A stretch of DNA of 64,000 nt from NCBI GenBank assembly GCA_963826935.1, contig CAWGYH010000002.1, forward strand, positions 1,288,028-1,352,027. Direction: 5' to 3'. Origin of the DNA: an uncultured Chlamydiales bacterium. GTDB taxonomy: Bacteria; Chlamydiota; Chlamydiia; Chlamydiales; FEN-1388. The translations under genes were made by a program, and so were the position numbers. Position 1 is the stretch's first letter, and every line of letters starts with the position of its first letter. This document shows, one piece after another, positions 42,474-43,724 of the stretch. Under the pieces are notes generated by a model that saw nothing but the letters and a program-made list of their open reading frames with translations, did no database searches and had not been told where the DNA came from.

Positions 42474-42567
42474 ATAACCGCGAAGAGAGCGAAGAAAGAC
42501 TCGGAAGATTGATATTCTCGATCTAAAAAAATAATTGAAACACAGAGTCACAGAGTTCACAGAGAAA
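42474..42567. repeat. Left inverted-repeat block flanking the gene at 42592-43530 (CGCGAAG-type arm plus (CACAGAG)x3)
   Basis: ATAACCGCGAAGAGAGCGAAGAAAGACTCGGAAGATTG ... AAATAATTGAAACACAGAGTCACAGAGTTCACAGAGAAA. Its reverse complement recurs at 43664-43724. Confidence 0.7.
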
Positions 42568-42591
42568 GGAAAAAGAACGAGTGAATTCATT

Positions 42592-43530
42592 CTAATTTTT
42601 TATCGCACAGCGTATATTATATGCGTCAGCTCCCTTTCGAGATTTTTCTAATAAACGTAAGATCAGTTCCTCTGAATAGTTTCCTTCTATAGCAAGGCGT
42701 ATAAGATAGGGGTTTGCGCCCTTTGGGCATCTTCCTAGCATTTGTAAAATAATTCTTTCAGGAAGCCGATTTTCAAGGGCGATTCGAATGTCGTATTTAC
42801 ATACCTGAACTTTATCGATGTGTCTTTCCAAAAGTGGGTAGTAGGATCGGGGAATGTTTTTGATAAGTTCTATAATGCACGTATCATTTGCAAGTAAGCT
42901 AAAGAAAATCGGTACCATGTGCACAAAGCGTTCGGTAGCAATTGCTGCTGTTATAGTTGTTGAGGGGATTCTGATTTTTTTATCGACGAGCATTTGTACC
43001 GTTTCTAAAGTACACCACTCGCATTTAATAAAAGATGTTAATACATTGCTATGTGGAAATTGATTAAAAGAAGCTCCAGCCCTTGCTAAAATTTGTATTT
43101 CATCGTTAGGATTTGGAAGGCAAAACGTATTAGCATTTGTAGGACAAGGTCTTTCATATTCTTTTAAATCTACATATTTATACCAGATGCTATCCAAAAG
43201 AGTTGAATGGCAGCGCTCTCTCATTAAAAGCCTAGCATAAATAACTCGCTTGGCTTCAAGTAGTGTCACGCCCTGTTTTAATGCAAACACATTGGGTACT
43301 TTCTTTCGAAAATAGTTACAATGTCGTCTGTAACAATCCATTACCTGTGAATAGGCAGTTGCATGTTCTATAGGAACGATTTTTAGATCATCGCGGATTT
43401 TGCCGAAAATGAGTGCATGGGTGTGTCTATTTACCATTGCACAAGCCATCCCAGACTCTTCATCTAAATACCCGAAAAATATAGTCTTAGATAAGCTAGG
43501 ATCCATACCTGAAGGTAGAAATAAAGCCAT
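42592..43530 (-). CDS. F-box-like N-terminus with ankyrin-like C-terminal repeats; candidate effector
   Basis: 312 aa. LPSGMDPSLSKTIFFGYLDEESGMACAMVNRHTHAL fits the second half of the F-box pattern (YLD..12 residues..V.R). The C-terminal ~33-aa units (ILQMLGRCPKGANPYLIRLAIEGNYSEELILRLLEKSRKGADAY) look ankyrin-like. Confidence 0.45.
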   Translation of the reverse strand: MALFLPSGMDPSLSKTIFFGYLDEESGMACAMVNRHTHALIFGKIRDDLKIVPIEHATAYSQVMDCYRRHCNYFRKKVPNVFALKQGVTLLEAKRVIYARLLMRERCHSTLLDSIWYKYVDLKEYERPCPTNANTFCLPNPNDEIQILARAGASFNQFPHSNVLTSFIKCEWCTLETVQMLVDKKIRIPSTTITAAIATERFVHMVPIFFSLLANDTCIIELIKNIPRSYYPLLERHIDKVQVCKYDIRIALENRLPERIILQMLGRCPKGANPYLIRLAIEGNYSEELILRLLEKSRKGADAYNIRCAIKN

Positions 43531-43663
43531 TGTAATAACTCCTTAACTACTTTACTCCAACTCATGCTGCATCAAAAGACGCGCATACCTCTACATTTAC
43601 CGCGTTTCCATCGATTATCTGGACTTTATACCTTTTTTACGAGAACCATCGACAGTTTAATTT

Positions 43664-43724
43664 TTTCTCTGTGTTCTCTGTGTCTCTGTGTTTAAATTAT
43701 TTCTTGCGAGTCTTCCGCGATTAT
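43664..43724. repeat. Right inverted-repeat block flanking the gene at 42592-43530
   Basis: TTTCTCTGTGTTCTCTGTGTCTCTGTGTTTAAATTATTTCTTGCGAGTCTTCCGCGATTAT is the reverse complement of the left block, with a ~13-nt deletion in the CGCGAAG part. Confidence 0.7.

Follow-up and report, generated by a model that had tools for sequence, protein, structure and literature searches.

The 64,000-nucleotide (nt) stretch of an uncultured Chlamydiales bacterium analysed here (the window) contains a single gene held between long inverted repeats, at the point where a pssA-like gene and a convergent lexA-like gene meet with their 3' ends. The locus illustrates cleanly the gain of one gene within a palindromic repeat that is now split. 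The segment 42474-43745, which comprises the gene and both arms and is here called the cassette, is by sequence comparison a lineage-specific insertion, because in relatives the pssA and lexA-like genes overlap with nothing between them. As to its nature, we give about an even chance to the view that this insertion between the two 3' ends consists of an AT-richer gene, coding for an F-box-like protein with helical repeats, lying in the loop of a compound palindrome built of short tandem arrays. The evidence from the source genome comes from this 64-kb window of a 1.6-Mb genome.

The bracketing of the gene is real. An open reading frame (ORF) of 939 nt is flanked by mutually inverted blocks, the left one at 42474-42567 and the right one at 43664-43728, and both reading of the sequence and a repeat finder agreed with the original prediction on this arrangement and its coordinates. 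The inner repeat, expected to be about 40 nt long, was recovered as 42526-42567 against 43664-43705 (42 nt, 88% complementary), with a BLAST E value of 7e-10 locally and 7e-8 against the whole window. It consists of AAATAATT(G/T)AAA followed by three CACAGAG units, and within the 64 kb CACAGAG arrays are present in the cassette arms only. The motif CACAGAGNNCACAGAG has two occurrences in the 64 kb, both in the inner arms, where 0.26 would be expected by chance, and the observed motif count was reached in 0 of 100 shuffles. The claim of an outer pair of CGCGAAG-type arms was sustained in part: the left arm is clear, but the right copy is degenerate (13 nt, 92%) and, with E=0.17, not significant alone; it is, however, collinear with the inner repeat. 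Read by eye, the right block (~61 nt) is an inverted copy of the left block at ~90%, given two deletions of ~13 and ~20 nt. As an RNA duplex the two blocks reach -68.9 kcal/mol, against -25.8 +/- 4.2 for shuffles, a distance of about 10 standard deviations.

The similarity of the blocks might also be ascribed to chance or to the low complexity of simple repeats, with no common origin, as the arms are made of short tandem units and the right outer arm is not significant by itself. However, the E value of the inner repeat against the whole window, the shuffles, the duplex energy and control heptamers of the same composition, which almost never have inverted partners (see below), all refute this explanation, and we regard it as extremely improbable.

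The left arm begins directly 3' of the TGA stop (42471-42473) of the pssA-like gene, which probably starts at M36 of the listed ORF 41538-42473, and the distance between the pssA and lexA-like stops is 1272 nt. The inserted segment carries terminal inverted repeats of 60-97 nt near both its ends, with the right arm stopping 17 nt inside it. Its G+C content is 37.9%, whereas the flanking genes have 50.4% and 46.9%. The labels previously given to these two neighbours were supported by Pfam matches to CDP-OH_P_transf and LexA_DNA_bind, respectively. Judging from their sequence, the arms are composite heptamer arrays, with outer CGCGAAG and inner CACAGAG units, of the general form CRCNRAG plus 1-3 spacer bases (Table 1).

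Table 1. Coordinates of the cassette, its flanking genes and the solo palindrome.
Feature	Position	Strand	Remarks
pssA-like CDP-alcohol phosphatidyltransferase gene	41643..42473	+	Pfam PF01066; orthologues start at same Met
Left outer arm, CGCGAAG-type heptamer array AATAACCGCGAAGAGAGCGAAGAAAGACTCGGAAGA	42474..42509	+	21-mer common to both solo arms; aligns with L014 arms
Linker TTGATATTCTCGATCT	42510..42525	+	Alignment with solo palindrome and L014, and reading by eye
Left inner arm AAAAAATAATTGAAA(CACAGAG-T-CACAGAG-TT-CACAGAG)AAA	42526..42567	+	Repeat finder; E=7e-8
Cargo gene, 312 aa, F-box-like N-terminus then alpha-helical repeats (predicted), 37.7% GC	42592..43530	-	
Cargo gene leader, 133 nt	43531..43663	-	Ribosome-binding site AAGGAG at 43539-43544
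Right inner arm, inverted copy of 42526-42567	43664..43705	-	Repeat finder
Right outer arm, degenerate; reverse complement AATAATCGCGGAAGACTCGCAAGAAAT	43702..43728	-	Repeat finder and reading by eye
17 nt separating right arm from lexA-like stop	43729..43745	.	Within insert; no counterpart in relatives
lexA-like gene, 205 aa	43746..44363	-	LexA_DNA_bind; without the 17-19-aa Ser-rich tail overlapping pssA in relatives
Solo CGCGAAG-array palindrome, 123 bp	51514..51636	.	Arms 51514-51553 and 51598-51636; loop ~44 nt

The state of the site before the insertion can be read from related genomes, a comparison that had been proposed along with the original prediction. The gene order PreP, pssA, convergent lexA-like gene, PAP2 and RmuC is kept in L003, L004, L005 and L705 (the last a 1.25-Mb contig), and in all four the cassette is absent and the 3' ends of the pssA and lexA-like genes overlap by ~52 nt. 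Nucleotide identity to the window is ~70-74% (L003, L005), and the pssA protein is 76-80% identical to its L003-L005 orthologues. The window's pssA retains its acidic tail, and the lexA-like protein has lost the Ser-rich tail encoded antisense to pssA. No arrays of the tested units were found in the loci sampled from the relatives (~60 kb in total). In L002, the closest relative, whose lexA-like protein is 67% identical, the available sequence extends only 38 nt past lexA; these match neither the arms nor pssA and are uninformative about the site. Target duplications were looked for at the cassette ends, but 42464-42473 and 43729-43755 share no direct repeat, and local alignments of the lexA tail region with the pssA tail and with the relatives gave no duplicated target. 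An independent assembly contig, L001 (Logan ERR11523662), is identical to the window over 41695-43693 and stops precisely where the right CACAGAG array finishes; this break could be due to a repeated k-mer or to structural heterogeneity at the arm.

The outer arm type is found at two loci in the 64 kb, the cassette and the compact 123-bp palindrome at 51514-51636, which was borne out as predicted, with arms of 27 nt (93%) and 11 nt (100%) in the repeat finder and an RNA fold of -64.3 kcal/mol (z = -9.5). Its kinship with the cassette is supported by the 21-mer CCGCGAAGANNGCGAAGAAAG, common to the left cassette arm (at 42478) and both solo arms (window E=2.8e-4 and 0.004). The right block lacks the linker that follows the left outer arm; this linker is similar to the loop sequence next to the arm in both the solo palindrome and L014. 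The solo palindrome begins 3 nt past the TGA (51509-51511) of a gene coding for a 280-aa protein with 9 Cys, so that both left arms do start 1-3 nt after a stop codon. It has no CACAGAG layer, and hence is not a simple deletion derivative of the cassette. With a ~40-bp stem, a 44-nt loop and no T-run after it, it is not like an intrinsic terminator, and a terminator scan gave only small sub-hairpins. No target-site duplication was found around it, only an A-run.

The solo palindrome is missing at the orthologous site, where the spacer between the 280-aa gene and a short-chain dehydrogenase gene is 35 nt in L704 (83% protein identity) and 47 nt in L705. In a related organism (L706 3924-5198 and L707 2484-3758), a 424-aa eukaryote-like Ser/Thr kinase gene lies precisely at the solo-palindrome site, between a 272-aa gene and the dehydrogenase gene. 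On this comparison, the same intergenic site has been struck independently in that organism.

Searches seeded on the two units indicated that the cassette arms are members of a large class of inverted heptamer arrays lying between genes, whose existence and sequence specificity are shown by the comparison with control sequences. The usual form of these arrays is a compact hairpin that starts a few bases past a stop codon, often with further hairpins nested in its loop. A scan of one genome per species with CGCGAAGANNGCGAAGAAAG (20 bases, the shared 21-mer minus its first C) gave at least 119 loci, and ~25 of those listed are palindromes of GCGAAG units, from Chlamydiae, Verrucomicrobia, Planctomycetes, Chloroflexi, Desulfuromonadales, Acidobacteria and Cyanobacteria. 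In these sequences, heptamer-array hairpins occur in at least six phyla. Within the Chlamydiae, one arm of L014 is identical to a solo arm over 41 of 41 nt, and LS4, a Chlamydiia metagenome-assembled genome (MAG) whose M20 peptidase is only ~50% identical to that of the window, has several copies of a TTTTTTTACCGCGAAGA...CTTCGCGGTAAAAAAA element. For three CACAGAG units, a metagenome scan gave at least 120 loci; under a less strict criterion (at least two inverted units within ~330 nt), 63 of those listed look like hairpins, with the form CAC(CACAGAG-N1-2)n ... (CTCTGTG)n GTG.

Raw counts of array patterns do not discriminate, as control heptamers of the same base composition as the array units also gave from 75 to at least 119 matches, mostly in-frame coding repeats of period 9. 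The discriminating measure is the presence of an inverted array within 400 nt of the locus. Among the loci listed, CACAGAG had such a partner in 51 of 120 from metagenomes and 31 of 136 from viral contigs, CGCGAAG in 30 of 120 and the predicted relative CACGAAG in 36 of 126. The scrambled controls GACAACG (0 of 100) and CAAGCAG (0 of 119) had none, and the four partners of the reversed control GAGACAC (4 of 75) read as rotations of CACAGAG-A arrays. Moreover, about 18 of 31 other inverted arrays near the seeds, counted by eye, have units of the CRCNRAG form, for example CACGAAG, CGCAGAG, CGCGGAG, CGCAAAG, CACCAAG and CACTGAG. CACAGAG, CGCGAAG and CACGAAG arrays occur together on one contig (L631).

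The original prediction called for a search for empty copies, and compact palindromes of both unit types were indeed found elsewhere (L014, L216, L710 and hundreds more), including compact CACAGAG hairpins with a cassette-like flank in L216 and also in L710. Compound palindromes, with one unit type outside and another inside as in the cassette flanks, are present in L178 and L230, and hairpins nested in the loops of others in L014 and L037. No Rfam family reached its gathering score in the window, and ten array-hairpin loci gave only sub-threshold look-alikes of miRNA hairpins. The class was not found in the literature searched, where only neighbouring topics turned up, and it may be described in other papers. 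An artefact of Illumina adapters was discarded as an explanation, since the arrays do not have the adapter sequence and, in contigs from many assemblers, lie within unique flanks. Other candidate explanations of the unit, namely the d(GCGAAGC) mini-hairpin, CsrA sites or Rho rut sites, were dropped because none fitted consistently. In some IMG/VR contigs (L279 9500-13400, L305 and L631), CRCNRAG arrays occur about once per kb. In L279 most of them are unpaired, one abuts the start codon of an ORF and others precede ORF starts by a few tens of nt, and they adjoin spacer-less GATTTAT/GATTTGC heptamer arrays.

In 148 distinct hairpins the units match between arms at 94% of positions and the spacer lengths are mirrored in 91% of pairs, but the spacer bases form Watson-Crick pairs in only 42%; in most cases a purine in the 5' arm faces a pyrimidine in the 3' arm, the two varying almost independently. 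Where a neighbouring ORF end was assignable, most of the 3' ends were no more than ~35 nt away from the hairpin. A crude ORF-based placement, noisy in high-GC contigs, put 22 of 69 hairpins inside an ORF. The hairpins of this class end in GTGAA or GGT, with no consistent T-run.

These features are relevant to a second explanation of the cassette, in which each arm is a separate copy of a dispersed module of gene ends, one settled after pssA and one after lexA, and the gene came between them or was there before, the bracketing being a by-product. Each arm does run in the sense direction just 3' of its neighbour's stop, and in other contigs there are unpaired arrays and arrays paired over kilobases (L279, L305, L037, L200). 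The weak complementarity of the purine/pyrimidine spacers suggests a constraint on the sequence of each arm and not on the pairing between them, and the flank AATTGAAA beside CACAGAG is also present in the unrelated contig L216. However, both blocks share over ~61 nt, at ~90%, the order of the two array types and the non-array linker (AAATAATT-G/T-AAA), the 64 kb holds no other CACAGAG arrays, and the relatives have no intergenic DNA here in which modules could have settled first. We thus consider independent arms an unlikely origin.

The gene between the arms belongs to a family of the chlamydial effector type. Its ATG is preceded by an AAGGAG ribosome-binding site at 8 nt, and a scan of the 133-nt leader found no sigma-70-like promoter, although promoter and terminator scans were uninformative. 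The protein had no Pfam match, and a fast word-index homology search returned only the protein itself. An exhaustive HMMER search gave 25 distant relatives, mostly of 300-550 aa and with a best identity of 40%, one of them annotated from a Parachlamydiaceae MAG. The product had been labelled F-box/ankyrin-like. F-box identity is weakly supported, by Pfam F-box/F-box-like matches (E 1.7e-5 to 1.9e-4) in 2-3 of the 21 family members aligned; the cargo protein itself has no such match. The ankyrin part of the label was not supported: neither the protein nor its family has a Pfam ankyrin match, Foldseek against PDB gave nothing significant (top matches were PPR or importin-like solenoids, E>0.1), and neither did a profile search of PDB sequences, whose best match was a designed ankyrin at E=0.11. 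A single-sequence structure model was poor (pLDDT 52) and was replaced by an alignment-based AlphaFold model (pLDDT 87), which is all-helical, with three short N-terminal helices followed by helical repeats. The model is a generic alpha-solenoid, and F-box-like with helical repeats is a fair label for the predicted product. Among four loci of homologues (L125, L708, L709 and L710), none is bracketed by inverted repeats, with little flank available in L708 and L709. A compact CACAGAG/CGCAGAG hairpin lies downstream of the homologue in L710, between convergent genes. No similarity to plasmids was found.

Arms set apart around a gene are not exclusive to this locus. In L037 (Tepidisphaeraceae), ~70-nt arms headed by GCGAAG units lie 1263 nt apart and enclose a His_biosynth gene (hisA/hisF-type) and further hairpins, and in L200 CACAGAG arms 1706 nt apart surround a Wzy_C gene. 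Bracketing by array arms therefore recurs, with unrelated and even housekeeping genes, and so it does not look like a dedicated cargo vehicle. The ~300-nt loop of a CACAGAG hairpin in L241 (~1300-1600), read by eye, seems to hold an ORF fragment (MTERITGAAIEVHKVLGPG...), which presumably resembles the small proteins of 23S rRNA intervening sequences; if so, this would be another case of coding DNA within the loop of an array hairpin.

The original prediction had offered two histories, a gene inserted into the loop of a palindrome and a passenger-carrying non-autonomous element with the 123-bp copy as its deletion derivative. The second would make the 1.25-kb unit a mobile insertion cassette or a cargo-carrying analogue of miniature inverted-repeat transposable elements (MITEs), in which the arms would act as terminal inverted repeats, the moving transposase would be encoded at another place in the genome, and the solo palindromes would be cargo-less relatives. 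Several features are as expected of such an element, namely the long inverted repeats near both ends of a segment absent from relatives, the foreign base composition of the cargo, and the economy of a single insertion. The presence of the arm family at unrelated loci and in distant Chlamydiae, and not in the closer relatives, suggests spread, and a repeated k-mer at the end of the L001 contig would fit as a weak hint. Nevertheless, no target-site duplication is seen at 42474/43728-43745 or at the solo palindrome, the only insertion sequence (IS) in the 64-kb window (27440-29291) has ends unrelated to the arms, and no transposase or second cargo copy with these ends was found in the window. In addition, the solo copy lacks the CACAGAG layer, the cargo homologues are unbracketed, split arms elsewhere enclose His_biosynth and Wzy_C genes, and the arms are short-unit arrays common to several phyla, unlike the ends of known IS families. 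A transposable cassette is therefore improbable in our assessment, and insertion into a palindrome loop fits better of the two. The route for moving single effector genes that the original prediction suggested is accordingly conjectural.

Under this preferred reading, the cargo gene would have entered, or been recombined into, the loop of an array palindrome, probably with no dedicated transposon carrying it. Loops of long palindromes are plausible sites of breakage and repair. The gene would probably be transcribed by read-through from the PAP2-lexA operon, since the scan of its leader found no promoter. In such a transcript the arms are predicted to pair into a ~60-bp stem around the gene, a likely RNase III or stability element.

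Some points weigh against the insertion of a gene into a palindrome loop. The site had no intergenic DNA at all, so the most economical history is the single insertion of a ready-made, repeat-flanked unit, which is more parsimonious than two or three nested events. Between the right arm and the lexA stop there are 17 nt, and two indels distinguish the arms. A short motif, AACCATCGA, is present both in the loop of the solo palindrome and in the interior of the cassette, which is difficult to reconcile with a simple history of nested insertion. Because spacers are often non-complementary and unpaired arrays exist, the hairpin may not be the functional unit of these arrays. Finally, it is a prediction that the arms pair in the transcript, that RNase III processes them and that the gene is expressed by read-through, and the evidence on arm copy number and on other copies with cargo is limited to the 64 kb of the window.

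The cassette shares traits with several known systems and coincides with none of them. Mobile insertion cassettes of the MIC231 type and cargo MITEs lack a transposase and carry passenger genes flanked by inverted repeats of IS origin. Our locus is similar in having a single non-transposase gene between long inverted repeats and in the absence of the unit from relatives, but no related IS, target duplication or second copy was seen in the 64-kb window, and its ends are array palindromes normally found as compact hairpins. Elements of the IS1397/ISKpn1 type insert specifically into the loops of intergenic palindromic units, and so provide a precedent for DNA landing in a palindrome loop and splitting the palindrome into two flanking arms; however, these are IS elements with their own transposase and ends, whereas the insert here is a plain gene with its leader. 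Integron cassettes also consist of a single promoter-less gene and an imperfect palindrome that folds as a hairpin, yet they have one attC at the 3' end, and here the two halves of the palindrome stand on either side of the gene. At the cassette, whose neighbours are housekeeping genes, no attC core-site pattern is visible, and no integron integrase turned up among the ORFs scanned, the window not having been searched for one.

Repetitive extragenic palindromic (REP) sequences and bacterial interspersed mosaic elements (BIMEs), Rickettsia palindromic elements, Correia/NEMIS elements and MITE-like hairpins are, like the arrays described here, short non-coding intergenic palindromes often placed just past stops. 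The likeness extends to presence or absence at orthologous sites and to long predicted hairpins. The arms studied here differ in being tandem 7-nt arrays with 1-3-nt spacers, in place of a unique sequence, whose units recur across phyla; no target duplication was seen with them. They begin with AACCGCGAAG or CAC-CACAGAG and have no GTAG/CGTC tag of the kind used to define REPs, whose super-families have been surveyed (PMC3733652). No RAYT/Y1 transposase turned up among the window ORFs scanned, in the course of which no systematic search of the window was made. TAACTGA heptamer repeats are known from Beggiatoaceae, Cyanobacteria and Bacteroidetes as direct, spacer-less arrays; of the sets in the BOGUAY genome, 169 are direct and one is indirect (PMC4679880). 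These and the cyanobacterial short tandemly repeated repetitive (STRR) sequences resemble our class as intergenic arrays of 7-nt units near gene ends, in distant phyla and with no known mechanism of spread. However, CRCNRAG units have spacers, and inverted partners accompany between a quarter and nearly half of the loci sampled.

Other repeats were observed in the window. The IS at 27440-29291 has 97-nt terminal inverted repeats (81%) and codes for a 448-aa DDE transposase (DUF772 / DDE_Tnp_1_6). A MITE-like palindromic element of 220-245 nt has four intergenic copies (2572-2792, 35376-35589, 46507-46750 and 57070-57295) with conserved termini (CGACCGCAGGTCTTTGGAGTGCTGCGAT...TTCGCAGC and inverse), and this family is distinct from the heptamer-array palindromes. 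At 17518-17648 there is a palindrome with tandem-hexamer arms, (TCTTGA)n ... (AAGATC)n, nested in a 24-nt inverted repeat (17495-17518 / 17650-17673), an array-type hairpin as well, though of a different unit. Dense direct arrays with a period of ~9 nt (TATCGTT x4, ATCCTGT, ATCTTGT) and no inverted partner occupy 6875-7183, between a weakly F-box-like ORF (5421-6740) and another ORF (7220-8989), and related units (AACGATA, and CAGGAT, the complement of ATCCTG) are found in the chlamydial MAG loci L046 and L014. A small hairpin of AAGGAC/GTCCTTT units lies at 37155-37210, at the 3' end of the M20 peptidase gene, and inverted arrays of the same units are present at L111 2108-2262 in the distant Chlamydiia MAG LS4. 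Two proteins of the minus strand also have repetitive sequences: a 525-aa protein (21255-22832) with a signal-peptide-like hydrophobic N-terminus, a long stretch of collagen-like Gly-X-Y repeats ((GAT)n, also GPR/GPT) and, at its C-terminus, a Cys-rich domain, and a 2196-aa ORF (10754-17344) with about eight tandem 108-nt (36-aa) repeats at 10973-11848.

Taking these data together, we put forward, as a tentative proposal that we hold to be rather doubtful as a whole, that inverted CRCNRAG arrays with 1-3-nt spacers (CACAGAG, CGCGAAG, CACGAAG, CGCAGAG, CACCAAG and others) are a widespread class, undescribed as far as we found, in which a process or binding factor specific for the units would maintain them, keeping them conserved and matching in both arms as the spacer bases drift, which would have spread patchily within and between phyla, and whose loops, taking in nested hairpins and entire genes, might serve as a landing pad, perhaps also as an RNA-level insulator, for new genes such as the effector-type gene described here.

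Environmental Chlamydiae have large and fast-changing sets of F-box and other eukaryote-like effector genes, and to our knowledge the way in which single effector-type genes are added to otherwise syntenic genomes is not understood. The locus described in this work offers a clean before-and-after pair, with overlapping 3' ends in the relatives and 1.27 kb of gene and arms here. Its significance lies mostly in this comparison and in the array class, rather than in any evidence for a novel mobile element. The hairpins of this class are abundant and sequence-specific and occur in at least six phyla, and they seem to be uncatalogued in Rfam and in the literature searched. If it is true that the loops of array palindromes are preferred entry points, these loops would mark the places where new genes join the genome, and each newcomer would be supplied with a ready-made RNA stem around it.

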